From positions 1,536,001 through 1,600,000 of the forward strand of contig CBDBDQ010000005.1 in the NCBI GenBank assembly GCA_965203905.1: 64,000 nucleotides of DNA. Reading direction: 5' to 3'. The notes below the pieces were generated by a model. The model made no database searches, was not told the DNA's origin, and saw nothing but the letters and a program-made list of their open reading frames with translations. This stretch comes from Spirochaetia bacterium. Its GTDB lineage: Bacteria > Spirochaetota > Spirochaetia > SZUA-6 > Bin103. A program made the position numbers and the translations under genes. Position 1 is the first letter of the stretch. Every line of letters starts with the position of its first letter. Positions 21,524-45,471 of the stretch are shown piece after piece.

Positions 21524-21651
21524 AATGTTCCTCCCCCGACGCAGGTCGGGGTCGCGGCGGTTCGGCGGCGGTACCGCCGGCGCGCCGCAGGCGCTGCGAT
21601 ATGCAGGCAGCGATTGCCCGCGGCGCGGCGCATTTCTATACTCGGCGCGAG

Positions 21652-23313
21652 ATGACCCGGGCTGTACCTGCCACACCGCCGTCCAGCGCCGCCGCGCCCG
21701 CCATTCAGGCCGGGCACTGGGCGGACGTGACCGCCGAACGCATCATCCGCCAGCGCGGCGACCGCGAATGCTACGTGGTGGCTTCCGGGGTGGCGCCGTC
21801 CGGGGCGGTGCACTTCGGCCACCTGCGCGAGGTGATGTCCACCGAGCTGGTGGCGCGGGCGTTGCGCGACCGCGGGAAGCGGGCGCGCTTCATCTACTCG
21901 TGGGACGACTACGACGTGTTCCGCAAGGTGCCCGCCAACCTGCCGCGGCAGGAGGAGCTGGCGCGCCACCTGCGCAAGCCGGTGGTGGACGTGCCGGATC
22001 CGTTCGGCGTTGCCGCCAACTACGCGGTCGGGTTCGAGCAGGGGCTGGAGCAGGTGCTTCCCCGCCTGGGCATTCGGCCGGAGTACCTGTACCAGGCGGA
22101 ACGCTACCGCGCGGCCCGCTACGCCGACGGCATCCGCACCGCCCTGGCGCGCCGCGCCGGCATACGCGCAATCCTCGACCGCCACCGGGACACCCCGCTG
22201 CCCGAGGATTATTGGCCGATCACGATATACTCAGGATTGGACGGCACCGACAACACCACGGTGCTGGACTGGGACGGCGCCGATACCGTCACCTACCGCG
22301 ACGTCGACGGCACCGAGAAGCGACTGGACCTGACCAGCTCCGGCGCCGCCAAGCTGCTGTGGCGCATCGACTGGCCGATGCGCTGGGCCTACGAGGGGGT
22401 CGACTGCGAGCCGGCCGGCAAGGATCACCACACCGCCGGCGGCTCGTTCGACACCGGCGGGCCGATCGCACGCGAGGTGTACGACTACGACCCGCCGGTG
22501 ACCTTCCTGTTCGGCGACGTGGGCGTCAAGGGCGGCGCCGGCCGCATCTCCTCCTCGGCCGGAAACGCGGTCACCATCGAGCAGGTGCTTGCCGTCTATC
22601 AGCCCGAGGTGGTGCGCTTTCTCTACGCCGGAACCCGGCCCAACGCCGAGTTCGTGGTGTCGTTCGATCTCGACGTGCTCAAGATCCACGAGGACTACGA
22701 CCGCGCCGAACGGGTGTACTTCGGCCACGAGCAGCTAGGGGCCAAGCGGCGCGACCGGGAGCGGCGCGTCTACGAGCTGTCGCAGATCGCGGAGGTGCCG
22801 GCGCGGATGCCACCCCAGGTGCCGTTCCGCCACCTGTGCAACCTGCTCCAGATCCGTGACGGCGACGTGGCTGCGACCCTGGCGGCGCTGGTGCAGGAGC
22901 TGCAGTTGACGGCGCCGGATGCCGCGGACGCCCGCCGCCGCCTGCAGGCGCGGGCGCAGGGCGCCGCTACCTGGCTGGAGAGCTACGCCCCGCCCTCCAT
23001 GCGCTTTCGCCTGCGGCGCGCCGACGAGCCGGCCCCGGCGCTGGCGCCGCGGGAGGCCGCCGCGCTCGGCCTCCTGTACCAGGAGCTGGCCGGGTTGGAG
23101 CGGCACGACGGCGCCTCCCTCTCGGACCGCATCTACGCCATCGCCGGTGAGCAGGAGCTGGCCCCGCGCGCCCTGTTCGCGGCCGCCTACCGGGCGCTGA
23201 TCGGCGCCGAGCGCGGGCCGCGGCTGGCGGACTTCATCCTGCTCAGCGGGCGCGCGCGCATCGCACCGCTGCTGGAGCCCTACGCTGCGGCGGCAGAGGA
23301 TGGGCCGGCATGA
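21652..23313 (+). CDS. lysS: Class I lysine--tRNA ligase
   Basis: HWAD, SGVAPSGAVHFGHLRE, WRIDWPMRW, EPAGKDH, ISSSAGN, GPRL. Confidence 0.93.
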   Translation: MTRAVPATPPSSAAAPAIQAGHWADVTAERIIRQRGDRECYVVASGVAPSGAVHFGHLREVMSTELVARALRDRGKRARFIYSWDDYDVFRKVPANLPRQEELARHLRKPVVDVPDPFGVAANYAVGFEQGLEQVLPRLGIRPEYLYQAERYRAARYADGIRTALARRAGIRAILDRHRDTPLPEDYWPITIYSGLDGTDNTTVLDWDGADTVTYRDVDGTEKRLDLTSSGAAKLLWRIDWPMRWAYEGVDCEPAGKDHHTAGGSFDTGGPIAREVYDYDPPVTFLFGDVGVKGGAGRISSSAGNAVTIEQVLAVYQPEVVRFLYAGTRPNAEFVVSFDLDVLKIHEDYDRAERVYFGHEQLGAKRRDRERRVYELSQIAEVPARMPPQVPFRHLCNLLQIRDGDVAATLAALVQELQLTAPDAADARRRLQARAQGAATWLESYAPPSMRFRLRRADEPAPALAPREAAALGLLYQELAGLERHDGASLSDRIYAIAGEQELAPRALFAAAYRALIGAERGPRLADFILLSGRARIAPLLEPYAAAAEDGPA

Positions 23314-25833: not shown

Positions 25834-26247
25834 ATGTGGGCGCTATCCGCAAAAGCACGCTACGGCCTCCAGGCGGCCTACGACCTGGCCCTGCACGCCG
25901 GCAACGGACCACGCCAGATCCGGGAGGTGGCCGCCGATCAGGAGATTCCCCAGCACTTCCTGGAGCAGGTGCTGGTGCAACTCAAGCGCGCCTCGCTGGT
26001 GCGCAGCTACCGCGGCTGCCACGGTGGCTATGCGCTGGCCCGGGAACCAGCGCAGATCTCGGTGCTGGAGGTCCTGACCTGTCTGGAGGGGCCTTTGGAA
26101 TTTGGCGCCGGGCCGTGGAGCGACGAGGTGCTGGCGCTGCCGCTGCAACGCGCCGCCGAGGGCGTCAGCCGGGCGCTGCAGGTGACGCTGGCCGACCTGG
26201 TGTGGGACAAGCAGCGCTCCCAGCCGCACCTCACCTACCAGATATGA
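25834..26247 (+). CDS. Rrf2-family transcriptional regulator (CymR/IscR-like)
   Basis: [30 protein letters not shown]. Confidence 0.9.
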
Positions 26248-26995
26248 GCGTCTCGGATATGAACGCCTCGACGGAGCTGTCCGCACCGGTCGCGGTCCTG
26301 CAGGAACTCGCCGCCAGCGCGGAGCGCGGTCCCGAGACCCTGCTGCGGGCCCTGGTGGAGCGCTACGGACGCGGCCTGAAGCTGGCCTCGTCGTTGGGTA
26401 CCGAGGATCAGGTGCTGACCCACATGCTGCTGCAGATCGATCCGCAGGCGCGCATCTTCGTGCTCGATACCGGGCGCCTGCACCAGGAGACCTACGACCT
26501 GATGGCGCGCACCATGAGCCGTTACGACATGCGCTACGAGGTGCTGTTTCCCGCCGCGGAGGCGGTCCAGGAGATGGTCGCCGGCGAGGGCCCCAACCTG
26601 TTCTACGCCAGCGTCGAGGGGCGCCAGCGCTGCTGCGCGGTGCGCAAGGTGGAGCCGCTGGGGCGGGCGCTGGCCGACGCCGCCGCCTGGGTGACCGGGC
26701 TGCGCCGCGAGCAAAGCCCGGAGCGCGGCGCGACTCCGGCGGTGGAGTGGGACACCGCCCACAGCGCGGTGAAGGCCAACCCGCTCGCCGAGTGGAGCGA
26801 GGCGCAGGTGTGGGACTACCTGCGCAGCCATGGGGTTCCCTACAACGTGCTGCACGACCGGGGCTTCCTCAGCATCGGCTGTGCCCCGTGCACCCGCGCC
26901 GTGGAGCCGGGCGAACCGGCGCGCGCCGGGCGCTGGTGGTGGGAGCAGGGCACCGCCAAGGAGTGCGGCCTGCACCCCGCCGGGGAAGAGCGCTC

Positions 26996-26999
<4 letters not shown>
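26244..26999 (+). CDS. cysH: APS/PAPS reductase (Fe-S APS-reductase type)
   Basis: [29 protein letters not shown]...KECGLH. Confidence 0.92.
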
Positions 27000-27876
<877 letters not shown>

Positions 27877-27877
<1 letters not shown>

Positions 27878-29802
27878 TGGCCGCGGTGACGGATACCCCC
27901 GCCAAGCCGGCGCCGGCTGCGGCCGCGGCGTCCAGGCCCGAGGTGGCGGTGATGAACGTGGTGGTGATCGGCCACGTCGACCATGGCAAGAGCACGGTGG
28001 TGGGACGGCTGCTGCACGACACCGACGTGCTGCCGCACGGCAAGATCGAACAGGTGCGCCGCAACTGCGAGCGCAGCGGCAAGCCGTTCGAGTACGCGTT
28101 CCTGATCGACGCCCTGCAGGACGAACAGGCGCAGGGCATCACCATCGACGCGGCGCGGGTCTTCTTCCGCTCCGACCGCCGCCGCTACATCATCATCGAC
28201 GCTCCCGGACACATCGAGTTCCTGAAGAACATGATCTCCGGCGCCGCCCGTGCCGAAGCCGCCATCCTGGTGATCGACGCCCAGGAGGGGGTGCGCGAGA
28301 ACTCGCGCCGGCACGGCTACATGGCGGCCATGCTCGGCATCCGCCAGCTGGTGGTCGCGGTCAACAAGATGGACCTGGTGGACTACGACCAGGCCACGTT
28401 CGCCGCCATCCACGAGGAGTACGCGGCCTTCCTGCGCGAGATCGAGGTGCAGCCGCGCGCCTTCATCCCGGTGAGTGGCCGCCACGGCGACAACCTGGCG
28501 GCGCCGTCGCCGCGCACGCCGTGGTACGACGGCGCCCCGCTGCTGCAGCAGATGGATGCGCTCGACAGTGCCGGACCCGCCACCTCGCAGGCGCTGCGGC
28601 TGCCGGTGCAGGACGTCTACAAGTTCCCGGTGCGCGGTGACGACGCGCGCATCGTCGCCGGCACCGTCGCCAGCGGCAGCGTGCGGGTGGGAGACGCGGT
28701 CGAGTTCCTGCCCTCGCGCAAGCGCGCCCGCGTGCGCAGCATCGAGGGCTTCAACCTGCCCCCGCAGCGGGAGGCGGCCGCGGGCGGCGCCACCGGCATC
28801 ACCCTCAGCGAGGAGCTCTACGTCCGTCCCGGCGAAGTGATGTACCGGGTGGGCGAACCGGCCCCGCGGGTCGGCACCACGTTCCGCTGCAACCTGTTCT
28901 GGCTCGGCCGCAACCCGCTGGTGCGGGGCAAGCGCTACCGGCTCAAGCTGGCCACCAACCGGGTCGCCGTGCACGTCAAGGAGATCGTGCAGGTGCTGGA
29001 CGCAGCCAGCCTGGAGAGCCGCGGGTCGGGGCCGGGGCGGAGTGCCGGAGGCGCCCGCGAGGTGCCGGCCCACGTGGGACGCCACGACGTCGCCGAGTGC
29101 GTGCTGGAGACCCACAAGCCGATCGCCTTCGACCTCGGCCTGGGCGCGGACCTGGCGGCGACCGGGCGCTTCGTGCTGGTTGACGAATACGAGATCGCCG
29201 GCGGCGGCATCATTACCGAGTACCTGTCCGGCCTCAGGGACTCCCTGCGCGAGCACGTCAAGCAGCGTGAGTACGCCTGGGTACGCGGCTCCATCACCCA
29301 GCAGGAGCGTATCGAACGCTTCGGCCAGCGGGCGCGGCTGGTGGTGCTGACTGGCCCAGAGCGGCGGCCGCTGCAGGAGATGGCGCGGGGGCTGGAGGCG
29401 GAGCTGTTCCGCGCCGGGCGCAGCGCCTACTACCTGGGACTCACCAACCTGGCCCGCGGCCTGGACGCGGACATGACCGAGGCTGCGGATGGAGACGCCG
29501 CGATCACAACGGCCGGAGACGACCGCGGGGAGCACGTACGGCGTCTCGGCGAGGTGGCCCACATCCTCTGTGAAGCGGGGCAGATCGTCATCACCACGGT
29601 GGCCGATCTCGACACCTACGAAGCGGAGACGTTGCGTATTCTCGGCCAGCCTCACGACATGCTGGTGATCCGCACCGGCGCCGACCGGCACGGCGTGAAC
29701 GCGGACCTCGCGCTTCCGTCCGAGACGCCGGTGGCGGAAGCGGTGGCCGCGGTGTGCCGCCTGCTGCGTGAGCGCGAGGTGCTGCTCGAGTACTACCTGT
29801 GA
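27877..29802 (+). CDS. cysN: Sulfate adenylyltransferase subunit 1 with degenerate C-terminal APS-kinase-like domain
   Basis: [24 protein letters not shown]; C-terminal CysC-like region lacks Walker A. Confidence 0.9.
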
Positions 29803-29830
29803 CGGACGCGGCGCCGCCGCGGAGCGATTG

Positions 29831-31297
29831 ATGGCGGCTTTCGTGAGCCTGATCGGGGCCGGACCGGGCGACCCCGAGCTGATCACCCTGCGCGGCCAGC
29901 GTGCCCTGGCGGCGGCCGACGTAATCATCTACGACGACCTGGTGGATCGGCGCCTGCTGATCCCGTTTGACGGGCGGCCGGTGTATGGCCTCGGTGACCG
30001 CCGGGCACCGGCGCCGGAACGGCAGCAGCGCCTGTATCGGCTGCTGGCGGAACAGGCGGCGGCCGGGCGCCGGGTGGCGCATCTCAAGGGTGGCGACCCG
30101 CTGCTGTTCGCGCGCGGCACGGAGGAGATACTGTTCCTGCGTGGCGCCGGCATCCCCTACGAGGTGATTCCCGGCATTACCGCCGCGGTGGCGGCGGCCG
30201 CCTACGCGGAGCTGCCCCTGACGCGGCGCCGGCAGGCCTCGTCGGTGGCCTTCTGCACCGGGCACACCGAGCAGGTGGCGGTGCCCGAGGCCGATACTCT
30301 GGTCTACTACATGGCGGCCGCGCGGCTGGCGGTGATAGCCGAGCAGCTCCTGGCCCGAGGCTGGCGCCCGGCGACGCCGGTGACCCTGATCCGCAACGCC
30401 AGCCGCCCCGACCAGTCGGTGACCACCCTGACGCTGCGCGGCGCTGCCCGCCATGACGCGCCGGCGCCCCCGCTGGTGGCGGTGATCGGACCGGGTGGCG
30501 CTCCGGTGGGCGCCGAACCCCGAAGTGACCGGCGGCCACCGCTGGCCGGCGGCGCGGCCGAGAGCGGCCCGCCGGCCCACGCCGGGAGTTCCTGGTTCAG
30601 CAGCGCGCGCAAGGTGCTGGTGACCGGGACCAGTGCCGAGCCCTACCGCCGTCTCGGGGAAGTGGTGCACACGCCGCTGATCCGGATTGCGGAGCCGGCC
30701 GACTGGGGACCCCTGGATGCGGCTCTGGAACGGCTTGCGGACTACTCGATCGTGGCGCTGACCAGTCGTTACGCCGTAACGGCGCTGATGCGGCGGCTGC
30801 TGGCGCGCGGTGGCGACGGACGGCGCCTGGCCCAGGCGCGGCTGGCAGTGGTGGGGGCCGCAACCGCGGCCGCGCTGCGCGGGCACGGCCTGATGGCGGA
30901 CCTGGTGGCGCAGCCGGAGACCGGCGCGGGTCTGCTGGCGGCGCTGCGCGGCGCCGGGCCGCTGGCAGGCGGGCGGGTGCTGCTGCCGCGCTCGCAGCTC
31001 GCCGATGCCGTCCTGCCGCAGGGGCTGTGCGCGGCGGGCGCGGAGGTGACGGCGGTCACCGCCTACCGCACCCTGCCGGTGACCGCGCCGGTGCAGGTGG
31101 ACCTGGCCGCCTGCGACGCCGTGGTGTTCACCTCGCCCTCCACGGTCGAGGCGTTTCGCCAGCTCTACGGAACGGCGGTGCCGGAACGGGTAGAGCTCTG
31201 GTGTCGCGGTCCGCGTACCCGGACGGCGGCGCAGGCCGCGTTCGGACGCGGCGCTGCGCTGCCGGGTGACGCGGCCCGCAGGGCTGCCGCGCGCTGA
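29831..31297 (+). CDS. cobA: Uroporphyrinogen-III C-methyltransferase/synthase fusion (CobA-HemD)
   Basis: GAGPGDPELIT, LKGGDP, IPGITA; HemD half with LTS, VGAAT, FTSPSTV. Confidence 0.88.
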   Translation: MAAFVSLIGAGPGDPELITLRGQRALAAADVIIYDDLVDRRLLIPFDGRPVYGLGDRRAPAPERQQRLYRLLAEQAAAGRRVAHLKGGDPLLFARGTEEILFLRGAGIPYEVIPGITAAVAAAAYAELPLTRRRQASSVAFCTGHTEQVAVPEADTLVYYMAAARLAVIAEQLLARGWRPATPVTLIRNASRPDQSVTTLTLRGAARHDAPAPPLVAVIGPGGAPVGAEPRSDRRPPLAGGAAESGPPAHAGSSWFSSARKVLVTGTSAEPYRRLGEVVHTPLIRIAEPADWGPLDAALERLADYSIVALTSRYAVTALMRRLLARGGDGRRLAQARLAVVGAATAAALRGHGLMADLVAQPETGAGLLAALRGAGPLAGGRVLLPRSQLADAVLPQGLCAAGAEVTAVTAYRTLPVTAPVQVDLAACDAVVFTSPSTVEAFRQLYGTAVPERVELWCRGPRTRTAAQAAFGRGAALPGDAARRAAAR

Positions 31298-31322: not shown

Positions 31323-32222
31323 TCAGCCGCGGGCGCGCAGGGCCTGCAGCACGCTGTCGTCGTGGCGCCACTTCTTGCGCACCTTGACCCTCAGGTCGAC
31401 AGTCACCCGGCGGCCGAAGATGGCGCGCAGCTGGGCCTCCGCGCCACGGCGGATTTCGGCGATGCCGGCACCGCGCCGGCCCACCACGATTCCGACCTGG
31501 CTCGGGCGCTCCACCCAGATGGTGGCGCGCGCCCACAGGCCGCCGGGGCGCGGCTCCAGGTCCAGCACCTCGACGTACAGTGCGTGCGGGACCTCGGCGC
31601 GGGTACGCCGGAACACCAGCTCGCGGACGATTTCGGCGACCCGGAAGTCGGGACTCTGATCGGTATAGACGTCCGCAGGGTAGTGCAGGTCGCCGCGCGG
31701 GCTCAGTTCCAGCAGCCGCGCCACCAGCCGTCCGACTCCGGCGCCGGTGAGTGCCGAAACCGGGTGCAGCTCATCGATGCCGGCCGCGTGAACTGCCTGT
31801 GCCATGGCGCGGGCAGCGTCGCGGGGCGCTTTCAGATCCACCTTGTTGCGCGCCGCCACGCATGGACCTGAAAAACCGCGCGCCGCGGTCAGCACGGCAT
31901 GGTCCTCGGGCCCGAACGGGCGCCCGGAATCGAACACCAGCAACAGCAGGTCGACCTCGCCGGCAACCGACAGCGCCACGTCGCGCAGCACGAGGTTCAT
32001 CTTGCGTTCGCTCAGATGCAGCCCCGGGGTGTCGAGGAAGATGAGCTGGCCTTCCTGCCTGGTGACGATACCCCGCACCCGGCTGCGCGTGGTCTGCGGT
32101 ACCGGCGACACGATCGACACCTTGTGACCGCAGATACGGTTGACCAGGGACGACTTACCCGTCGACGGACGGCCGATTACGCCGACGCTGCCGACGTGCG
32201 GTTGCGCTGCGGCACCTGCCAT
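31323..32222 (-). CDS. era: GTPase Era
   Basis: GRPSTGKSS, PQTTR, DTPG, NKVD, KH-like VGRRG. Confidence 0.93.
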   Translation of the reverse strand: MAGAAAQPHVGSVGVIGRPSTGKSSLVNRICGHKVSIVSPVPQTTRSRVRGIVTRQEGQLIFLDTPGLHLSERKMNLVLRDVALSVAGEVDLLLLVFDSGRPFGPEDHAVLTAARGFSGPCVAARNKVDLKAPRDAARAMAQAVHAAGIDELHPVSALTGAGVGRLVARLLELSPRGDLHYPADVYTDQSPDFRVAEIVRELVFRRTRAEVPHALYVEVLDLEPRPGGLWARATIWVERPSQVGIVVGRRGAGIAEIRRGAEAQLRAIFGRRVTVDLRVKVRKKWRHDDSVLQALRARG

Positions 32223-32243
32223 CAGCGGACGCCGCGGCGGCCG

Positions 32244-32930
32244 TCACTCATCAGCCGGAGGCCGGGTGCGGCCGCGGGCCCGGCGCCGGTCGACGCGCTC
32301 GGCGCGATTGCGCAGGGTCAGGCGGCGCCGCAGGCCGCGTTCCACCAGGGTCAGCGTGTCCTCGATCAACTCGTCGTTGCCCTCGCTGCCGAAGTCCGTC
32401 AGCAGCGAGGTGTAGAGCGCGATCAGCATGCGCCGCGCGTTGCGGAAACGGCCGATGCGGAACGGTCCGCCGGCGGGCGCCGGCGCGCAGTATGTCGTCG
32501 ATCATGTCACCGATGTTCCTGAGCACCCACTCCGAGCGCTGCACGGGTACCGTTCCCGGGCAGGTGAAACGGCGGTCTCCGGTCAGCATGCCGCGCAGTA
32601 TGGGGCTGTGACGCAGCCCCAGGGTAATGAACCGGTACAGCGCCTTGAGTTGGTTCATGGGCGACTCGAAACGGCTGACCACGCGCCGCGCCTCGCTGAT
32701 GGCGCGCCGTTCGATCAGCTCGAGGATGTGGCCGTAGAACGCCTCCTTGCTCGGGAAGTAGTTGTAGAAGCTCCCGGTGGCGAGCCCGGAGGCGTGCGTG
32801 ATCTGCTCTACGCTGACGTCGCGGTAACCCTGTTCCGCGAACAGCCGCTCGCCGTTGGCCAGCAGCGCTGCCCGGCGGCGGGTGCGCTGGGAATGCCCCT
32901 GCGGCGAACGAATGAATGTTGCGTTCAGAT
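32244..32930 (-). CDS. TetR-family regulator, frameshifted near 32463 (start approximate)
   Basis: LFAEQGYRDVSVEQIT...GLATGSFYNYFPSKE; C-terminus continues in another frame (FRIGRFRNARRMLIALY). Confidence 0.75.
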
Positions 32931-33065
32931 ATTCATCCCCCGTTGCGGACGCCAGACCCGATTCCGTGGCCTGTGGGCCGTTTCCCGGGCAGCGTACCAC
33001 CTTTGTCGGTCACAACGGAACACCCCGTCCGCGGCTTCGCGTACATTGGGGAACGAGATTGCAGA

Positions 33066-34475
33066 ATGGAAGCGAGCCACTACGTGCTGCGGTGCATGTC
33101 CTGCGGGCGACAACGGAACGAAAGTCGCCACGGGTTTGCCCTGTACTGCAGTTGTGCCGACCCGGCAGCGGGACTCCTGCGTGCCGAATACACCGAGCCA
33201 CGTTTCGTCGTCAATGCCGGCAGCGGTCTGTTCCGGTACGGACACTGGTTGCCGATCCGGTCGCCGCACGGGCCCCGCTCCGCCGCGAGCGGCGCCCGCT
33301 GCGGGCCGGTGGCCTACCGCAGTTCCGCGCTGGCGCACCACCTGGGCCTGGAACGGCTGGTGGTGCTGTACAACGGCTACTGGCCGGAACGCGGCGCCGG
33401 CCTGGAGAGCTGCTCCTTCAAGGAGCTCGAAGCGCTCGCGGTCACCGCCCGGCTGGCCGCGGACGAGCCGCGGACGCTGGTCGTGGCATCGGCCGGAAAC
33501 ACCGGGCGCGCCTTCCACGCGGTCTGCTCGCGACGCGGGCTGCCGGTGGTGGTGGTCGTGCCGCAAGCGGCCCTGCCCCTGCTCTGGACCACCGCCCCGG
33601 TATCGTCCGCGGTGACCCTGGTGGCCGTCAGCGGCGGCGCCGACTATGCCGACGTCATCCGCGTCGCCGCCATGGTGTCGGAGTTGCCCGGCTACCTGGC
33701 GGAGGGCGGCGCCCACAACGTGGCGCGCCGCGACGGCATGGGCTCGGTGATGCTGGCGGGCGTGGAGTGTGCCGGCGAGCTGCCGGACCACTACTTCCAG
33801 GCGGTGGGCAGCGGCACCGGCGCCATCGCCGCGTGGGAGATGGCGCAGCGCCTGGTGGCCGACGGGCGCTTCGGCGACCGCGTGCCGCGCCTGCACCTGG
33901 CCCAGAACGCGCCGTTCACGATCATGGCGGACGCCTGGCAGGCAGGCAGCCGTACGCTGCCGCCGCTGGACGAATCGCTGGCCAAGCGGCGCATCGCGGC
34001 CATGCAGGCCGCGGTCCTCAGCAACCGCCGGCCCCCCTACTCGCTGGCGGGAGGCGTGTTCGATGCCCTGGCGGCGAGCGCCGGCAGCATGTACCGGGTG
34101 CCGAACGGCGCCGCCGCGCGGGCCGCGGCGCTGTTCGCGGAAACGGAGGGCAGCGATCTCGATCCGGCCGCCGCCGTGGCGCTGGCGGCCCTGCAGCAGG
34201 CGCGGGCCGAGGGCGCGATAGGGAGCCGCGACACGGTGTTCCTCAACGTCACCGGCGGCGGGTTCCAGCGCCTGCGCGCCGAGGGACGGGTGCGCAAGCT
34301 GTTGCCCGATCTGGTGCTGGATCACCGCCGCGCAACTCCCGCAACTCTCGCCCAACTGCTCGACGGAAGTGGCGCAGCCAGCGCGGCCGCCACCGGCTCA
34401 TCGTCGCGCGCTGGCTTGACCCGCCGGCAGCCGCTTCGGCTTCCGGCCGGCCGCGCGCCGAGGGGGAACGCATGA
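33066..34475 (+). CDS. Cysteate synthase (PLP, threonine-synthase-like)
   Basis: NGYWPERGA...SCSFKELEA, VASAGNTGRAF, EGGAHNVARRDGMG, YFQAVGSGTGAIA, LSNRRPPY. Confidence 0.88.
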   Translation: MEASHYVLRCMSCGRQRNESRHGFALYCSCADPAAGLLRAEYTEPRFVVNAGSGLFRYGHWLPIRSPHGPRSAASGARCGPVAYRSSALAHHLGLERLVVLYNGYWPERGAGLESCSFKELEALAVTARLAADEPRTLVVASAGNTGRAFHAVCSRRGLPVVVVVPQAALPLLWTTAPVSSAVTLVAVSGGADYADVIRVAAMVSELPGYLAEGGAHNVARRDGMGSVMLAGVECAGELPDHYFQAVGSGTGAIAAWEMAQRLVADGRFGDRVPRLHLAQNAPFTIMADAWQAGSRTLPPLDESLAKRRIAAMQAAVLSNRRPPYSLAGGVFDALAASAGSMYRVPNGAAARAAALFAETEGSDLDPAAAVALAALQQARAEGAIGSRDTVFLNVTGGGFQRLRAEGRVRKLLPDLVLDHRRATPATLAQLLDGSGAASAAATGSSSRAGLTRRQPLRLPAGRAPRGNA

Positions 34476-35713
34476 CTGACCTGTTCGAAAAGTGCCACGG
34501 AGACGGCGGCTACTTCGGCCGCTACCGTGCCGCCGGCGACAAGTACGTAGTGCAGCCGATTCTCGATTCGCTGCCCGGGCCGCACATGGAGTCGGGGGGC
34601 CGGCACGTGATCATGTGGGGGATCAACAGCTACCTCGGCCTGACCGGCAACCCGCGGATCAAGGCCGCGGCATTGGCCGCGGTGAAGCGTTATTCCACCT
34701 CCACTCCCATGGGCTCACGCCTGCTCACGGGCAACACCTCCAAGCACGAGGCGCTGGAGCGGCGCCTCGCGAGCTATTGCGGCAAGCCCGCGGCGGTGCT
34801 GTTCAACTACGGCTACCTCGGCGTGATGGGCACCATTTCGGCTCTGATCGGGCCCAAGGACGAGGTGATCATCGACAAGCTGTCGCACGCATCGATGATC
34901 GACGGCACCATCCTGGCGATGGCCGGGCGTCGCTTTCGGCCCTTCCGCCACAACGACATGGAGAGCCTGGAGCAGCAGCTTCGCGCGGCGCGCAAGCGTG
35001 GCAGCGGCGGCATCCTGATCGTCATAGAAGGGGTCTACGGGATGCGCGGCGACCTGGCCAATCTGCCCGAGATCACCGCCCTGGCACGGCGCTACGAGGC
35101 GCGCATCTTCATTGACGACGCCCACGGCTTCGGGGTGATGGGGACCAACGGCCGCGGTACCGGCGAGCATTTCGGGGTGCAGGACGAGCTCGACCTCTAC
35201 TTCGGCACCTTCGCCAAGGCGTTCGCGGCGATCGGCGGGGTCACCACCGGCGCCCCCGACGTGATCGAGTACATCCGCTTCAACGCCCGCACCAACGTGT
35301 TCGCCAAGGCGCTGCCGATGGTCTACGTCGACGTGCTGGAGGCCACCCTGGACGAGATTCTCGCGCACCCGGAGTACCGCGAGCGGATGTGGTACAACGC
35401 GCGCACCCTGCAACGCGGGCTGGTGGAACTCGGCTACAGCATCGGTGACACGCAGTCGCCCGTTACTCCCGTGTACATCCCCTCGGGGCAGGAGACCGCA
35501 CGCGCCATCATGGTGATGCTGCGGGAGGACTACGGGGTGTTTCTTTCGGGCGTGACCTATCCGGTGGTGCCACGCGGGATCAACCTGTTTCGCATGATCC
35601 CCACGGCGCTGCACAGCGACGAGGACATCGCGATCACGCTCAACGCGTTCGCGGAGATCCGCGAGCGGCTCGCGCTCGACCTTGCCAGTCTCGAGCACCT
35701 CGCCACGGCCTGA
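34472..35713 (+). CDS. PLP alpha-oxoamine synthase (CapB/SPT/BioF family), putative cysteate acyltransferase
   Basis: INSYLGL, GSRLLTGN, EGVYGMRGD, DDAHGFG, GTFAKAFA; ATGA overlap with cysteate synthase. Confidence 0.85.
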   Translation: MTDLFEKCHGDGGYFGRYRAAGDKYVVQPILDSLPGPHMESGGRHVIMWGINSYLGLTGNPRIKAAALAAVKRYSTSTPMGSRLLTGNTSKHEALERRLASYCGKPAAVLFNYGYLGVMGTISALIGPKDEVIIDKLSHASMIDGTILAMAGRRFRPFRHNDMESLEQQLRAARKRGSGGILIVIEGVYGMRGDLANLPEITALARRYEARIFIDDAHGFGVMGTNGRGTGEHFGVQDELDLYFGTFAKAFAAIGGVTTGAPDVIEYIRFNARTNVFAKALPMVYVDVLEATLDEILAHPEYRERMWYNARTLQRGLVELGYSIGDTQSPVTPVYIPSGQETARAIMVMLREDYGVFLSGVTYPVVPRGINLFRMIPTALHSDEDIAITLNAFAEIRERLALDLASLEHLATA

Positions 35714-35718
35714 TTCCG

Positions 35719-36757
35719 GTGGCCGGCACTCGGCGCGCAGCGTCCCGGCGCCGCCCGGCCGCGCTCCGCCGCGCGCTGCCGGCGTGGCTTGCCGCCGGCA
35801 TGGCGCTGACCACCCTGGCAGGCTGCGGGGAGCGCGTGCGCCAGCACGAGTTCGCGGCCATGTCCACCGTCGTGCGCGCCACCGTGTACCACCGCCGCAG
35901 TCCCGACTGGGACGCGGTAGAGCGCGCCGCCCGCGAGTTTGCCGCACAGTACGATCACCGCGACCCCGCCAGTCCGCTGGCCCGGCTCAACCGCGACGGC
36001 AACGCGCAGCTCGAGCGGCCGCTGGCGGACACTCTGCGCGCCGCTCTGCGCCTGGCCGCGGCCACCGGGGGCGCCTTCGATCCGACGCTGCTGCCGGTCA
36101 CGCGGCTGTGGGACTTCGATCACGGCGGCACCCTGCCGGATGCGGCTGCGCTGGCCGCCGCCCTGGAGGCGCGTCGACTACCGCCGCCTGCAGGTGGACG
36201 CCGGCGGCCGCGCCACGCTGCAGGACGCCGAGCTCGACCTCGGCGCCATCGGCAAGGGCGCGGTGGTGGATCACCTGGCCGACTGGCTTGCCGAGCGCGG
36301 CTACGAGCGCTTTCTGCTGGAGGCCGGCGGCGACGTGCTGGTGTCCGGGCTCAAGCCGGAGGCCGCGCCGTGGCGCATCTGGGTGCGGCATCCGCGCCAG
36401 GCCGACGTGCCGCTTGCCATCGCCGCCATCGGCGTTGCCGGCGGCCGCGTGGCGCTGGCCACTTCCGGCGACTACGAACGGTTCTTCGAGCAGGACGGGG
36501 TGCGCTACCACCACATCCTCAACCCGGCCACGGGCCGCCCCGACAGCGACGCCGTGGCGGTGACGGTAATTGCCGGCAGCGCGATAGAAGCGGACGCGCT
36601 CGCCACCGCGTTATTTGTTATGGGAAGCGCCGGCGGCGAGCTGCTGGCAAGCTCCCCGGATATCGAAGGCGTGCTCATCTACCGCGCGGGCGGAGAACTG
36701 GCGGCCGTCGTGAGCGACGGCTTCCCGGCACAGCAGGGCCGGGTCAACGTCAACTGA
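35719..36757 (+). CDS. apbE: FAD:protein FMN transferase ApbE, frameshifted near 36168
   Basis: Lipobox LAGC and GGAFDPT in one frame; DLGAIGKG, ATSGDYER, YHHILNP, ADALATA in the next. Confidence 0.85.
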
Positions 36758-41066: not shown

Positions 41067-41358
41067 CCACAGCGGCGGCGTGGACTGGGTCGTTGCAACC
41101 TGCGACGCCTGTCGCGAACTGCGACAGTTCCTGCAAAGTGTTGCAGCCCAATTACTTGAGTCGGGATAGGCAGGCTCAGGCGTTTGCATCTTGGACACTT
41201 CGTCACGATTGTCCGCAACCGCAGGCTCTGCCAGTGGCTGATCCCTACCGATCGAATTCTTTATCAGGATAAGAATTAACAGGCAGACCCAGGCACCTCC
41301 CGGAGCTGGCACGGTTCCTGCTTGTCACTGTGTTGAACGACAACGACAAGGAGGATCC

Positions 41359-43077
41359 GTGCTTACGATTGTCGGCGGCATAGCGGGTGGATTAGGGCTT
41401 TTTTTCATGGGCATGAAGCTGCTCTCGGAGCATCTCAGGTTGTTGTCCAATCGTCGCCTGCGACAGAGTGCCGCCCGTTGGACCAGGAATCGGTGGACGG
41501 GGTTAGCCTGGGGCGCAATTGCCGGCGCGGTCACGCAGACCATGCCCGCGTTGACGTTCATCATGGTAGGCATGTTGAGGTCGGGACTCCTGTCCGTGCG
41601 CCGGGCGTTCCCCATCCTGCTCGGCGGAAACATCGGGGCGGTGCTGCTGCTGCTGGTCGTGATGCTCGATATCAAAATGGCCGTGCTGTACGTCCTGGGC
41701 GTTTCGCAGATGACAGCCATGATCTCAACGAGAAATAACCGAGCGGCCAGATACCAGACCATGGCCGCAGCGCTGTTCGGGATGGGCATGATGATTCTCG
41801 GGTTTCTCCTGCTCAAGGACTCCGTGTCACCGCTGGCGGACTATCCCTGGTTCAGAGCGATCGTGGCATGGGCCGACCGCTCGCTGTTCCTGTGCCTGTT
41901 GGGCGGCACGTTGCTGTCCGTCGCGATGCAATCGGCGGGCGTGGTGAAGGTTACCAGCATCAGCATGGCCGCGGCTGGACTCCTCGGTATCGAACAGGTC
42001 CTGATGCTCAATCTGGGCGCCTGCCTTGGGTCGAGCGCGGCCCTCTGGCTGTTGACGTTGAACCTGACCGGTTGTTCCCGGCAGGTGGCCATGTACCAGG
42101 TGCTGTTCAACTGCGTGTCGTGCGCCGTATTCGTTCCGCTGCTCATTGTGGAAGCGTACTTCGACGTGCCGCTGTTCAAGGCCGCGATCGTCTCCATCGA
42201 TCTCCCTCTGGCGCAGCGATTGGCGTTGTTCGCCGTCTTCGTTGAGCTGACCACCTGCACGTTCCAGCTCACGGTCCTGGGGCCGGCCGCGCGGCTGATC
42301 GCACGCTGGTGGCCGGCTACGGAAGCGGAGACCCTGTCGAAACCGTGGTACGTTCACGACCAAGCCCTGGAAGACGCCGCCAGCTCGCTGCGGCTGGCCG
42401 ATCGCGAACAGCGGCGTCTGCTGGAGATACTGTCGCGCTGTCTCGACACGGTACGGCAGGGCACCGAGCTGGGCGCGCTGCGCGAGGCGGCAAAGGCGGT
42501 GCTGACCCGCATCGAGGAATTCCTGGACGACCTGGCGGAGCATTACCCGGACCAGAGTATCGATGACCACGTTTCGATGCTCACGCGCCAGCGGTTGCTG
42601 TTCTGGCTCGATGAACGGGTGCTGGAGCTGTGCGAAGTGCTGCATACCATGCCCCGGCGAGCGGAGCTGGAGGATTGGCGCATGGGTCTGGTCGAGGGCA
42701 TCGACGCCGTGCTGCTGGTGCTGCAAGACATGCTGAGTGCCGGCGACGAGGAGTCCTGGCCGCTTACCATGCAATTGATGAACAGCCGCGGCGAGCTGAT
42801 GCGCAGGACGAGAAGCACGTACCTGGGGGACGGATCGTCCCTGAGCGCCGCACAACGAACGAGTGTGCTGCGGCTCACCAGTATCACGGAGCACATCTTC
42901 CTGCTGTTGTCGCGACTGGCGCACGAATATCAACGGTACGCCGCTGAGAATGCCGACGGGCAAACTCCCGACGGCAGAGAGCCGGCGGCCGAGACGATGG
43001 CGTCGCCAAGTGGCCGCGATCTCCGGGAGGACGCCGCACTGAGAGCACTGTCAGCCGGCTCGGCTGCGCGAATGTAA
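41359..43077 (+). CDS. Na/Pi cotransporter family protein (copy 1)
   Basis: GGLGLFFMGM, LGGNIG, AMQS, GACLGSS; helical PhoU-like C-terminus. Confidence 0.85.
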   Translation: MLTIVGGIAGGLGLFFMGMKLLSEHLRLLSNRRLRQSAARWTRNRWTGLAWGAIAGAVTQTMPALTFIMVGMLRSGLLSVRRAFPILLGGNIGAVLLLLVVMLDIKMAVLYVLGVSQMTAMISTRNNRAARYQTMAAALFGMGMMILGFLLLKDSVSPLADYPWFRAIVAWADRSLFLCLLGGTLLSVAMQSAGVVKVTSISMAAAGLLGIEQVLMLNLGACLGSSAALWLLTLNLTGCSRQVAMYQVLFNCVSCAVFVPLLIVEAYFDVPLFKAAIVSIDLPLAQRLALFAVFVELTTCTFQLTVLGPAARLIARWWPATEAETLSKPWYVHDQALEDAASSLRLADREQRRLLEILSRCLDTVRQGTELGALREAAKAVLTRIEEFLDDLAEHYPDQSIDDHVSMLTRQRLLFWLDERVLELCEVLHTMPRRAELEDWRMGLVEGIDAVLLVLQDMLSAGDEESWPLTMQLMNSRGELMRRTRSTYLGDGSSLSAAQRTSVLRLTSITEHIFLLLSRLAHEYQRYAAENADGQTPDGREPAAETMASPSGRDLREDAALRALSAGSAARM

Positions 43078-43157
43078 CCCTCGCCCCCCGCCGTCACGCG
43101 CCGGCCGACGAGCCGCGCCCCCGGGCTCGTCACCGCCGGTCGTGCCGTCGTCGTCGG

Positions 43158-43436
43158 CGCCGCTGGCTCTGTTCAGCCCGTGGTACGACTACCGTGACGC
43201 CGGCCGGGCTCCGGAGGGGAGCTACCGCTATCGGGGCACCTGGGAGACCATCGACCACCTGCTGTTGGGCCCCGGGCTGTTCGACGCCGCCGGCGTGAGC
43301 TATGCCGGCAGCGACCGCTTCACGGTGATCAGTGACGGCCTGCTCGATGCCGAGGGCAGCCCGCGCCGCTTTCTGCGCGGCCCCCCGCCGGGCGGCTACT
43401 CCGACCATCTGCCGCTACGCCTGGACCTGGAACTCC
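43158..43436 (+). repeat. Duplicated 3' end of EEP gene (copy of 39258-39536)
   Basis: About 95% identical by eye, PLALFSPWY...SDHLPLRLDLEL. Confidence 0.9.
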
Positions 43437-43752
43437 GCGATCCGCCGCGCAAAGATGGCCACCCGCTCCGCCGGCGTGGACTGGGTCGTTGCAACCTGCG
43501 ACGCCTGTCGCGAACTGCGACAGTCTCTGCAAAGCGTTGCAGCTCAATTACTTGGGTCGGGATAAGCAGGCTCGATGGTTGCATCTTGGACACTTCGTCA
43601 CGATTGCCCGCAACCGCAGCTTCTGCCGTGACTGATCCCCTCCAATTCAATTCTTTATCAGGATAAGAATTAACAGGCAGACCCAGGCACCTCCCGGAGC
43701 TGGCACGGTTCCTGCTTGTCACTGTGTTGAACGACAACGACAAGGAGGATCC

Positions 43753-45471
43753 GTGCTTACGATTGTCGGCGGCATAGCGGGTGGATTAGGGCTTTTTTTC
43801 ATGGGCATGAAGCTGCTCTCGGAGCATCTCAGGTTGTTGTCCAATCGTCGCCTGCGACAGAGTGCCGCCCGTTGGACCAGGAATCGGTGGACGGGGTTAG
43901 CCTGGGGCGCAATTGCCGGCGCGGTCACGCAGACCATGCCCGCGTTGACGTTCATCATGGTAGGCATGTTGAGGTCGGGACTCCTGTCCGTGCGCCGGGC
44001 GTTCCCCATCCTGCTCGGCGGAAACATCGGGGCGGTGCTGCTGCTGCTGGTCGTGATGCTCGATATCAAAATGGCCGTGCTGTACGTCCTGGGCGTTTCG
44101 CAGATGACAGCCATGATCTCAACGAGAAATAACCGAGCGGCCAGATACCAGACCATGGCCGCAGCGCTGTTCGGGATGGGCATGATGATTCTCGGGTTTC
44201 TCCTGCTCAAGGACTCCGTGTCACCGCTGGCGGACTATCCCTGGTTCAGAGCGATCGTGGCATGGGCCGACCGCTCGCTGTTCCTGTGCCTGTTGGGCGG
44301 CACGTTGCTGTCCGTCGCGATGCAATCGGCGGGCGTGGTGAAGGTTACCAGCATCAGCATGGCCGCGGCTGGACTCCTCGGTATCGAACAGGTCCTGATG
44401 CTCAATCTGGGCGCCTGCCTTGGGTCGAGCGCGGCCCTCTGGCTGTTGACGTTGAACCTGACCGGTTGTTCCCGGCAGGTGGCCATGTACCAGGTGCTGT
44501 TCAACTGCGTGTCGTGCGCCGTATTCGTTCCGCTGCTCATTGTGGAAGCGTACTTCGACGTGCCGCTGTTCAAGGCCGCGATCGTCTCCATCGATCTCCC
44601 TCTGGCGCAGCGATTGGCGTTGTTCGCCGTCTTCGTTGAGCTGACCACCTGCACGTTCCAGCTCACGGTCCTGGGGCCGGCCGCGCGGCTGATCGCACGC
44701 TGGTGGCCGGCTACGGAAGCGGAGACCCTGTCGAAACCGTGGTACGTTCACGACCAAGCCCTGGAAGACGCCGCCAGCTCGCTGCGGCTGGCCGATCGCG
44801 AACAGCGGCGTCTGCTGGAGATACTGTCGCGCTGTCTCGACACGGTACGGCAGGGCACCGAGCTGGGCGCGCTGCGCGAGGCGGCAAAGGCGGTGCTGAC
44901 CCGCATCGAGGAATTCCTGGACGACCTGGCGGAGCATTACCCGGACCAGAGTATCGATGACCACGTTTCGATGCTCACGCGCCAGCGGTTGCTGTTCTGG
45001 CTCGATGAACGGGTGCTGGAGCTGTGCGAAGTGCTGCATACCATGCCCCGGCGAGCGGAGCTGGAGGATTGGCGCATGGGTCTGGTCGAGGGCATCGACG
45101 CCGTGCTGCTGGTGCTGCAAGACATGCTGAGTGCCGGCGACGAGGAGTCCTGGCCGCTTACCATGCAATTGATGAACAGCCGCGGCGAGCTGATGCGCAG
45201 GACGAGAAGCACGTACCTGGGGGACGGATCGTCCCTGAGCGCCGCACAACGAACGAGTGTGCTGCGGCTCACCAGTATCACGGAGCACATCTTCCTGCTG
45301 TTGTCGCGACTGGCGCACGAATATCAACGGTACGCCGCTGAGAATGCCGACGGGCAAACTCCCGACGGCAGAGAGCCGGCGGCCGAGACGATGGCGTCGC
45401 CAAGTGGCCGCGATCTCCGGGAGGACGCCGCACTGAGAGCACTGTCAGCCGGCTCGGCTGCGCGAATGTAA
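43753..45471 (+). CDS. Na/Pi cotransporter family protein (copy 2, identical protein)
   Basis: Same 572-aa translation and same shadow ORFs as copy 1, offset 2394. Confidence 0.85.
   Translation: MLTIVGGIAGGLGLFFMGMKLLSEHLRLLSNRRLRQSAARWTRNRWTGLAWGAIAGAVTQTMPALTFIMVGMLRSGLLSVRRAFPILLGGNIGAVLLLLVVMLDIKMAVLYVLGVSQMTAMISTRNNRAARYQTMAAALFGMGMMILGFLLLKDSVSPLADYPWFRAIVAWADRSLFLCLLGGTLLSVAMQSAGVVKVTSISMAAAGLLGIEQVLMLNLGACLGSSAALWLLTLNLTGCSRQVAMYQVLFNCVSCAVFVPLLIVEAYFDVPLFKAAIVSIDLPLAQRLALFAVFVELTTCTFQLTVLGPAARLIARWWPATEAETLSKPWYVHDQALEDAASSLRLADREQRRLLEILSRCLDTVRQGTELGALREAAKAVLTRIEEFLDDLAEHYPDQSIDDHVSMLTRQRLLFWLDERVLELCEVLHTMPRRAELEDWRMGLVEGIDAVLLVLQDMLSAGDEESWPLTMQLMNSRGELMRRTRSTYLGDGSSLSAAQRTSVLRLTSITEHIFLLLSRLAHEYQRYAAENADGQTPDGREPAAETMASPSGRDLREDAALRALSAGSAARM

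Follow-up and report, generated by a model that had tools for sequence, protein, structure and literature searches.

The window analysed here is a stretch of 64,000 nucleotides from a Spirochaetia bacterium (assembly GCA_965203905.1, contig CBDBDQ010000005.1, below C5, positions 1536001-1600000), and near its middle lie two plus-strand genes that form the subject of this report, a cysteate synthase of the CapA/Cys type and a cysteate fatty acyltransferase (CFAT) of the CapB/SulA/CFAT type (Table 1). The original prediction, drawn from the letters of the window, had described a gene with cysteate synthase motifs coupled by an ATGA overlap to an alpha-oxoamine synthase carrying the motif GTFAKAFA, divergent from a TetR gene and about 3 kb from cysHDN, on a contig thought to be spirochaetal. 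Each of these features was recovered: both open reading frames (ORFs) are open throughout and the end of the first overlaps the start of the second, GTFAKAFA occupies residues 245-252 of the acyltransferase, the minus-strand ORF upstream matches TetR_N, and the cysHDN block ends 3.26 kb before the synthase begins. The closest records are metagenome-assembled genomes (MAGs) that their depositors named Spirochaetales, Spirochaetia or Spirochaetaceae, with 87-95% identity and synteny over 17 kb around the pair. The region has about 70% G+C and belongs to a 7.79-Mb contig in a genome of 7.99 Mb, whose completeness is estimated at 98.7% and contamination at 7.9%. From family membership, diagnostic residues, gene coupling, co-inheritance and synteny, we consider it likely that the translationally coupled pair represents the committed steps of a capnine-type sulfonolipid pathway.

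Table 1. Features of the window discussed in the text, in window positions
Feature	Position	Strand	Remark
Rrf2-family (CymR-like) regulator, first of the cysHDN genes	25834..26247	+	TIGR00738 92.4 bits, cut-off 73.3
cysH (adenylylsulfate/phosphoadenylylsulfate, APS/PAPS, reductase)	26244..26999	+	NF002537 268.6 bits (cut-off 154); TIGR02055 253.6 bits (cut-off 235.3)
cysD (sulfate adenylyltransferase small subunit)	26996..27877	+	NF003587 343 bits, cut-off 195
cysN with C-terminal APS-kinase-like part	27877..29802	+	NF004035 418.9 bits, below cut-off 715
Uroporphyrinogen-III methyltransferase/synthase fusion	29828..31297		Between cysHDN and the pair
TetR-family regulator, divergent from the pair	32244..33000	-	TetR_N 47.9 bits; start codon uncertain
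Candidate TetR operator, inverted repeat ATGAAT-N13-ATTCAT	32912..32936		TetR/synthase intergenic region; putative role
Cysteate synthase (CapA/Cys type)	33066..34475	+	469 aa, translates without stops
ATGA stop/start overlap, synthase end and acyltransferase start	34472..34475	+	Read from the sequence
Cysteate fatty acyltransferase (CapB/SulA/CFAT type)	34472..35713	+	413 aa, translates without stops

The assignment of the first gene rests on a specific model, as the protein scores 484.3 bits against the NCBIfam equivalog TIGR03844 (cut-off 324.9; residues 6-416 on model positions 1-396), and its top solved relative is 9K3C, deposited as 'Cysteate synthase' (358 bits, residues 5-417). Threonine synthase models give at most 76 bits, far under their cut-offs, and the best threonine synthase structure, 2ZSJ, gives 43.8 bits. 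In a control on 14 reference genomes (E <= 1e-80) TIGR03844 matched in Methanosarcina acetivorans only, and relatives of the window protein have been deposited under the name 'cysteate synthase [Spirochaetia bacterium]'. By family it is a cysteate synthase, predicted to form L-cysteate from O-phospho-L-serine and sulfite. Where the PALP match begins, residues 117-119 read S-F-K, and this lysine is a candidate for the PLP-binding Schiff-base lysine of the beta-family fold. Set beside the known enzymes, namely TIGR03844 and 9K3C, CapA/Cys of Bacteroidota and the coenzyme M enzyme of Methanosarcina, the spirochaete protein passes the equivalog cut-off but carries an extra Ala/Gly/Arg-rich C-terminal tail of about 50 residues beyond the end of the model. 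Unlike the gene of Methanosarcina, it is coupled to a lipid enzyme and not to coenzyme M genes, and several families place it straight after cysD-cysN.

For the second gene, the two best solved relatives are both sulfonolipid enzymes, the cysteate-C-fatty acyltransferase of Capnocytophaga ochracea (28EH, 388 bits) and SulA of Alistipes finegoldii (7U7H, 359 bits), each aligned over the full length. Serine palmitoyltransferase (SPT) 3A2B follows as the third-best solved relative with 265 bits, Kbl 1FC4 gives 211 bits and the best BioF structure at most 164 bits. Residues 1-401 align along the whole of CapB/CO-CFAT (28EH, 28FA) and SulA, with the pyridoxal phosphate (PLP) lysine and the catalytic residues in common, and the same reaction is expected of the spirochaete enzyme, which differs from these in that its gene shares an operon with a cysteate synthase. 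By family it is a CapB/SulA/CFAT-type enzyme, predicted to turn cysteate and an acyl thioester into 3-ketocapnine and CO2. Publicly its relatives are named 'glycine C-acetyltransferase' or 'aminotransferase family protein', names that hide the connection to sulfonolipids.

Residues around the PLP-cysteate adduct have been named in two studies, in which Lys280 (CO-CFAT) or Lys281 (SulA) is called usable for telling sulfonolipid from sphingolipid condensing enzymes (PMC13692747; PMC9304779). In the window protein this lysine is Lys279 of its own numbering. Position 280 is Lys in 21/21 rows of the window's order, 20/20 rows of distant Spirochaetia and 20/20 Bacteroidota rows of CFAT type, against Ala in all ten SPT-like rows and Asn in all four Kbl rows. 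Spirochaete rows also hold the CFAT state at Glu187 (Asp in SPT-like proteins), Phe245 and Ala249 (Ser in SPT-like proteins), and at position 113, where SPT-like proteins have Thr, they have an aromatic Tyr or Phe, the window protein having Tyr as do 14 of the 20 Bacteroidota rows. The catalytic set Asn52, His139, Asp216, His219, Thr247, Lys250 and Arg376 is present in 21/21 spirochaete rows, and Gly114 and Tyr115 are kept as well. Two pocket positions depart from the C. ochracea enzyme in 21/21 spirochaete rows, position 82, with Ser for Ala, and position 141, taken up below; position 277 is Val or Leu. Compared with SPT of Sphingobacterium multivorum (3A2B; NF047600), with which it shares fold family and catalytic cycle (PMC9304779), the spirochaete acyltransferase thus has Lys and not Ala at 280, Glu and not Asp at 187 and Ala and not Ser at 249, and it falls in another clade.

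That clade was obtained in two trees, built by quick IQ-TREE searches (LG+C20 being named for the 58-row tree) and supported by SH-like approximate likelihood ratio tests (SH-aLRT) without bootstraps. Their labels came from E. coli K-12 BioF and Kbl, from Bacteroidota proteins that pass or approach the SPT and Kbl cut-offs, and from Bacteroidota relatives of the acyltransferase in named records; for two of these relatives the solved CFATs give 575-606 bits and SPT at most 260. In the 58-row tree two clades emerge, one of the 21 spirochaete rows (98) and one of the 20 Bacteroidota rows of CFAT type (99), and a branch of length 1.23 with support 100 joins the two apart from SPT-like, Kbl and BioF proteins, those of E. 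coli included. The 70-row tree adds 20 rows of distant Spirochaetia, 12 rows of other classes and two named proteins, and here 46 Spirochaetota rows from two classes and the two named proteins make one clade (97), sister to the Bacteroidota clade (99) with joint support of 99. The branch that parts the acyltransferase from SPT-like, Kbl and BioF proteins measures 1.2-1.35 over both trees, with support 99-100. The original prediction had inferred a cysteate-derived, sphingoid-like lipid and named a phylogeny of the second protein against CapB, SPT, BioF and Kbl as a check; the enzyme joins the CFATs (SH-aLRT 99-100), and it has Lys280 and the four other CFAT-versus-SPT residues. Two proteins nest in the clade of the window's order, one labelled Salinispira pacifica (P0070) and one labelled as from a Dehalococcoidia MAG. 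The latter record, a contig of 6941 bases, carries both acyltransferase (P0108) and synthase (P0211), and because its acyltransferase nests inside that clade it is probably a mis-binned spirochaete contig.

The gene pair is common across spirochaetes and not peculiar to this genome. Among the window's own genome and its 40 nearest relatives, 31 of 41 have the acyltransferase (at least 60% identity) and 11 have the synthase over its cut-off. Over the order as a whole (92 genomes) the acyltransferase occurs in 59, and by family it was found in 23/23 genomes of the window's family, f1, besides the window's own, in 17/25 of f2, 13/21 of f7, 3/5 of f8 and 1/2 of both f4 and f5, with 0/5 in f3 and 0/8 in f6. 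A sample of the class (301 genomes) gave the acyltransferase in 72 and the synthase in 63 (59 over cut-off), with both in 61, the acyltransferase only in 11, the synthase only in 2 and neither in 227, where 11 is an upper bound, at least two of these genomes having a synthase next door by tblastn. In a sample of the phylum (401 genomes) the acyltransferase was found in 23 and the synthase in 25, that is both in 23, the acyltransferase only in none, the synthase only in 2 and neither in 376. None of the 22 foreign matches of the phylum sample belongs to the window's class, and a single family accounts for 15, in 15 of its 17 members. The two genes are non-adjacent in that family, 2.7 Mb apart in one single-contig genome, and their co-occurrence there is therefore independent of linkage. 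Related genomes are not independent of each other, and these tables describe the pattern and do not test it.

Gene order at the loci of relatives adds to the picture. Among 20 loci of the window's order, a TetR homologue stands beside the acyltransferase in 18, the synthase in 10 and a synthase remnant in one. Among 20 loci of other Spirochaetia families the synthase adjoins the acyltransferase in 15, the same-strand order cysD-cysN-synthase-acyltransferase is found in 5 and cysH follows directly after the acyltransferase in 3, and in these distant loci the supply of sulfite and its consumer apparently sit in one operon. The remark of the original prediction on the proximity of cysHDN is on firmer footing for this, because other families link the cys genes directly to the pair. 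Bacteroidota differ in this respect, as at none of 75 loci (49 of them of at least 12 kb) were the synthase, a TetR homologue or cys genes found nearby, whereas the two genes of the window overlap; this agrees with the unlinked, scattered cfat, Cys and reductase genes of C. gleum and A. finegoldii (PMC11211663). In the window's family cysD is present in 23/23 other genomes. Two stricter proposals were rejected, that cysHDN is an obligatory partner of the pair, on account of the f2, f7 and f8 genomes considered below, and that sulfite is reserved for cysteate through a missing sulfite reductase, since NIR_SIR is found in all 23 family genomes and in the window's own.

As a separate observation on these loci, a protein of about 355 aa of the glyoxalase/VOC superfamily lies near the acyltransferase in 16 of 29 spirochaete loci, mostly convergent and just downstream (L127-L132, L135, L137-L142, L144, L096 and L101; for example L130:5271-6335, minus strand). 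A tblastn search of the window's own genome found no homologue of this VOC-fold neighbour.

The pair is probably under the control of the divergent TetR regulator, which would act on the palindrome ATGAAT-N13-ATTCAT (Table 1), a candidate operator conserved in 8/8 intergenic regions aligned within the genus, those of synthase-less loci included. The maximal TetR ORF in the window spans 32251-33000 on the minus strand, and its frame shifts near 32463/4 by one extra base, after which the conserved C-terminal half is read in a different frame, ending with the stop codon at 32244-32246. In all three public runs covering this position (X1, X3 and X21) the contigs are one base shorter, and the shift is for this reason most likely an assembly error of the window; a real inactivation of the regulator was rejected as the likelier reading on the same ground. 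A scan of 32200-36200 for promoters and terminators gave one promoter-like site, inside the acyltransferase gene, and no terminator, a result no better than that of shuffled sequences.

Repeated losses have removed the synthase and left the acyltransferase in place. In the window's genus, three genomes, of which two are single-contig and 95% complete, have the acyltransferase at 70-91% identity and no synthase match, and the same holds for 13/13 genomes of the sister genus. At such loci the TetR gene is followed by about 250 bases and then by the acyltransferase, and one genome retains a synthase remnant of 75 codons. A contig from run X21 joins 33061 to 34462, skipping 1400 bases that equal the synthase ORF almost to the base; the intergenic region upstream is retained in it, as is the G-rich stretch that precedes the start of the acyltransferase. 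Since the intergenic region and its conserved palindrome are kept, the acyltransferase would still be under the same control after the deletion, and the synthase-less acyltransferases keep all residues tested. The contigs of X21 are 90-95% alike to the window over most of the stretch, and the run is an RNA library in which DNA carry-over is possible; expression is not claimed. The same clean deletion (33062-34461) is also seen in relatives' loci L012, L013, L089 and L090-L094, and X21, labelled as a sponge metagenome, holds synthase-bearing contigs too, both forms coexisting there.

On this gene content a plausible route can be outlined. CysD, CysN and CysH, encoded 3-7 kb upstream, would activate sulfate and reduce it to sulfite, and the cysteate synthase would exchange the phosphate of O-phospho-L-serine for this sulfite, giving L-cysteate. 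The acyltransferase would then form the external aldimine of cysteate with PLP and condense it with a long-chain acyl thioester, either acyl-ACP (acyl carrier protein) or acyl-CoA, with loss of CO2, to give 3-ketocapnine. An unlinked short-chain dehydrogenase/reductase (SDR) would reduce 3-ketocapnine to capnine, and an N-acyltransferase could turn this into a sulfobacin-like lipid for the outer membrane.

The window holds no CapC-like reductase, as the original prediction had stated, for although the genome has 85 matches to PF00106 (adh_short), none of them lies within C5 1536001-1600000. Several ordinary SDRs, scattered over the genome and not linked to cfat or Cys, act as 3-ketocapnine reductases in Bacteroidota; in the two species tested this activity was found for 3/12 and 3/7 candidate SDRs, and the active ones fall in different branches of the SDR tree, each with 21-27% similarity to yeast Tsc10p (PMC11211663). 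Because known reductases are scattered ordinary SDRs and this genome has 85 SDR matches, the missing reductase in the window is no counter-argument, and because they are dissimilar and unlinked and have no model of their own, no single candidate can be named and none is expected nearby.

Several observations weigh against a capnine-type pathway at this locus. Among the genes of the genome no reductase or N-acyltransferase can be assigned. Of 7 genomes of f2, f7 and f8 that were searched, five carry both genes of the pair, but cysD was found in none. The synthase-less genomes imply either another source of cysteate or a second substrate for the acyltransferase. Identity of the spirochaete acyltransferase to the retrieved Bacteroidota homologues is 43-49%, and all six characterised CFATs belong to a clade that does not include the spirochaete enzymes. 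The two trees come from quick searches, with SH-aLRT as their sole measure of support, and the Bacteroidota rows in them were collected using peptide patterns based on the spirochaete protein. Finally, where the C. ochracea enzyme has Cys141, 21/21 spirochaete rows and half of the SPT-like rows have Ser; this Ser is not disqualifying, because a Cys141Ala variant retains about 19-48% of activity (PMC13692747).

The alternative that survives best accepts the same enzymology and assigns the product another role: instead of being a bulk membrane lipid, it would be a low-abundance metabolite, secondary or used in signalling, such as free capnine or something sulfobacin-like, with effects on neighbours or a host. 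The pair stands under a TetR-type regulator and not among core lipid genes, the presence of the synthase varies among strains of one genus, the relatives 90-95% alike come from a run with a sponge metagenome label, and bioactive sulfonolipids are known (PMC11525784; PMC11211663). Presence of the acyltransferase in every one of the 23 other family genomes and in nearly two thirds of the order fits a housekeeping role instead, and we regard this alternative as unlikely.

A second alternative holds that the acyltransferase is an SPT or another alpha-oxoamine synthase, BioF- or Kbl-like, that makes a sphingoid or other keto-amine, and that the synthase serves a sulfonate osmolyte or cofactor. Its best NCBIfam model is indeed that of Bacteroidota SPT, NF047600, at 317 bits, which is half of the cut-off of 640, and homologues of the Bacteroidota CFAT clade score alike on it (298-320 bits), so that the library seems to lack a model for CFAT-type enzymes. 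Pfam Aminotran_1_2 and several alpha-oxoamine synthase models match the protein and none of them above its own cut-off, the values being 293 against 500 for NF047599 and 224 against 670 for NF047603 (both SPT), 290.5 against 426 for bioF, and 294.5 against 460 and 251.9 against 493 for Kbl, with the ALAS models likewise under theirs. The Ser at position 141 is SPT-like and the acyltransferase persists in genomes with no synthase detected, but the five CFAT-versus-SPT positions, Lys280 among them, are of CFAT type, the separating branch is long and well supported, and the genome has a separate SPT-like paralogue with Ala280. We hold this alternative to be quite improbable.

The paralogue is a second alpha-oxoamine synthase outside the window (C5 5441045-5442220) with Ala at position 280; it scores 468 bits against NF047600 (cut-off 640) and is present in most relatives too, and through it the organism may also make a sphingolipid-like base.

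It is very improbable, and already largely refuted, that the module came recently from Bacteroidota by horizontal transfer or is a contaminant binned in error, for although sulfonolipids have been described as Bacteroidota lipids (PMC9304779), the contamination of the genome is estimated at 7.9% and a Dehalococcoidia-labelled record has both genes on 6.9 kb, the window lies within a 7.79-Mb contig with flanking genes syntenic in genus and sister genus, the 46 Spirochaetota rows and two named proteins form a clade outside that of Bacteroidota, and at none of the 75 Bacteroidota loci do synthase and acyltransferase stand side by side.

The capnine-type reading is accordingly preferred, and sulfonolipid genes in spirochaetes appear to be undescribed so far, as among the open-access papers listed in a search none was about spirochaete sulfonolipids, judged by title or abstract, none of those on spirochaete taxa mentioned capnine, and none of those on distribution dealt with spirochaetes. 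Surveys have covered human-associated genomes with emphasis on Bacteroidota (PMC11525784; PMC11211663). The papers listed on cysteate synthase concern methanogens, Bacteroidota and a few other bacteria. The enzymology is known, and what is new is the phylum, how widespread and apparently old the genes are within it, the form of the operon with cys and TetR genes, and the natural deletions of the synthase.

Sulfonolipids matter for gliding motility and for the induction of rosettes in choanoflagellates. They have also been linked to TLR4 signalling and inflammatory bowel disease (PMC11525784). If spirochaetes make them, a second phylum would supply bioactive lipids in sediments, mats and animal-associated communities, sulfonolipid biomarkers would no longer be specific to Bacteroidota, and the already unusual spirochaete outer membrane would gain a new component. 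The spirochaete operons would offer a clean genetic link from assimilatory sulfate activation to lipid synthesis, and the natural synthase-minus strains a ready-made test of cysteate scavenging.

A broader scenario, which we put forward tentatively and regard as somewhat doubtful, is that capnine-type sulfonolipids are old and vertically inherited in Spirochaetota, predating the split of at least two classes, with an original, self-contained operon cysD-cysN-synthase-acyltransferase-cysH leading from sulfate by way of sulfite and cysteate to 3-ketocapnine, and that synthase-less lineages rely on cysteate from an animal host or neighbours. Were this true, the acyltransferase of such lineages would still be expressed from the same promoter, with the TetR operator unchanged, and their lipid would record a cross-feeding of sulfonate. 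In this scenario the aminolipid of Salinispira pacifica could be capnine; the major polar lipids of this species (DSM 27196) include 'an unidentified aminolipid', and iso-C15:0 is reported for it too (PMC4511686), and the protein labelled with its name is 65% identical to the window acyltransferase, while no match so named was found among the best 120 relatives of the synthase. The aminolipid and the acyltransferase homologue together are a lead, not evidence.

The surroundings of the pair are conserved, lysS, rpiA, mnmA, era, TetR, ApbE, clpP and purC being syntenic in the genus and its sister genus. Between cysN and the pair, era follows the uroporphyrinogen-III fusion gene, and downstream of the acyltransferase come ApbE, clpP, purC and a gene of the endonuclease/exonuclease/phosphatase family. 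cysN also scores 328.7 bits against TIGR02034, under its cut-off of 336.1. The genome has no match to the FlaA flagellar sheath protein (PF04620), and this is uninformative, as the control genomes have none either. At 21601-23313 the window encodes a class I (archaeal-type) lysyl-tRNA synthetase (TIGR00467, 463 bits), a form typical of spirochaetes. Further downstream, 41073-45471 is duplicated in tandem (period about 2394 bases), and the copies are 98% identical over the 300 bases compared; each holds a 572-aa Na/Pi-cotransporter-like gene (41359-43077 and 43753-45471), and the duplication is set in a stretch of lower G+C (57-65%).

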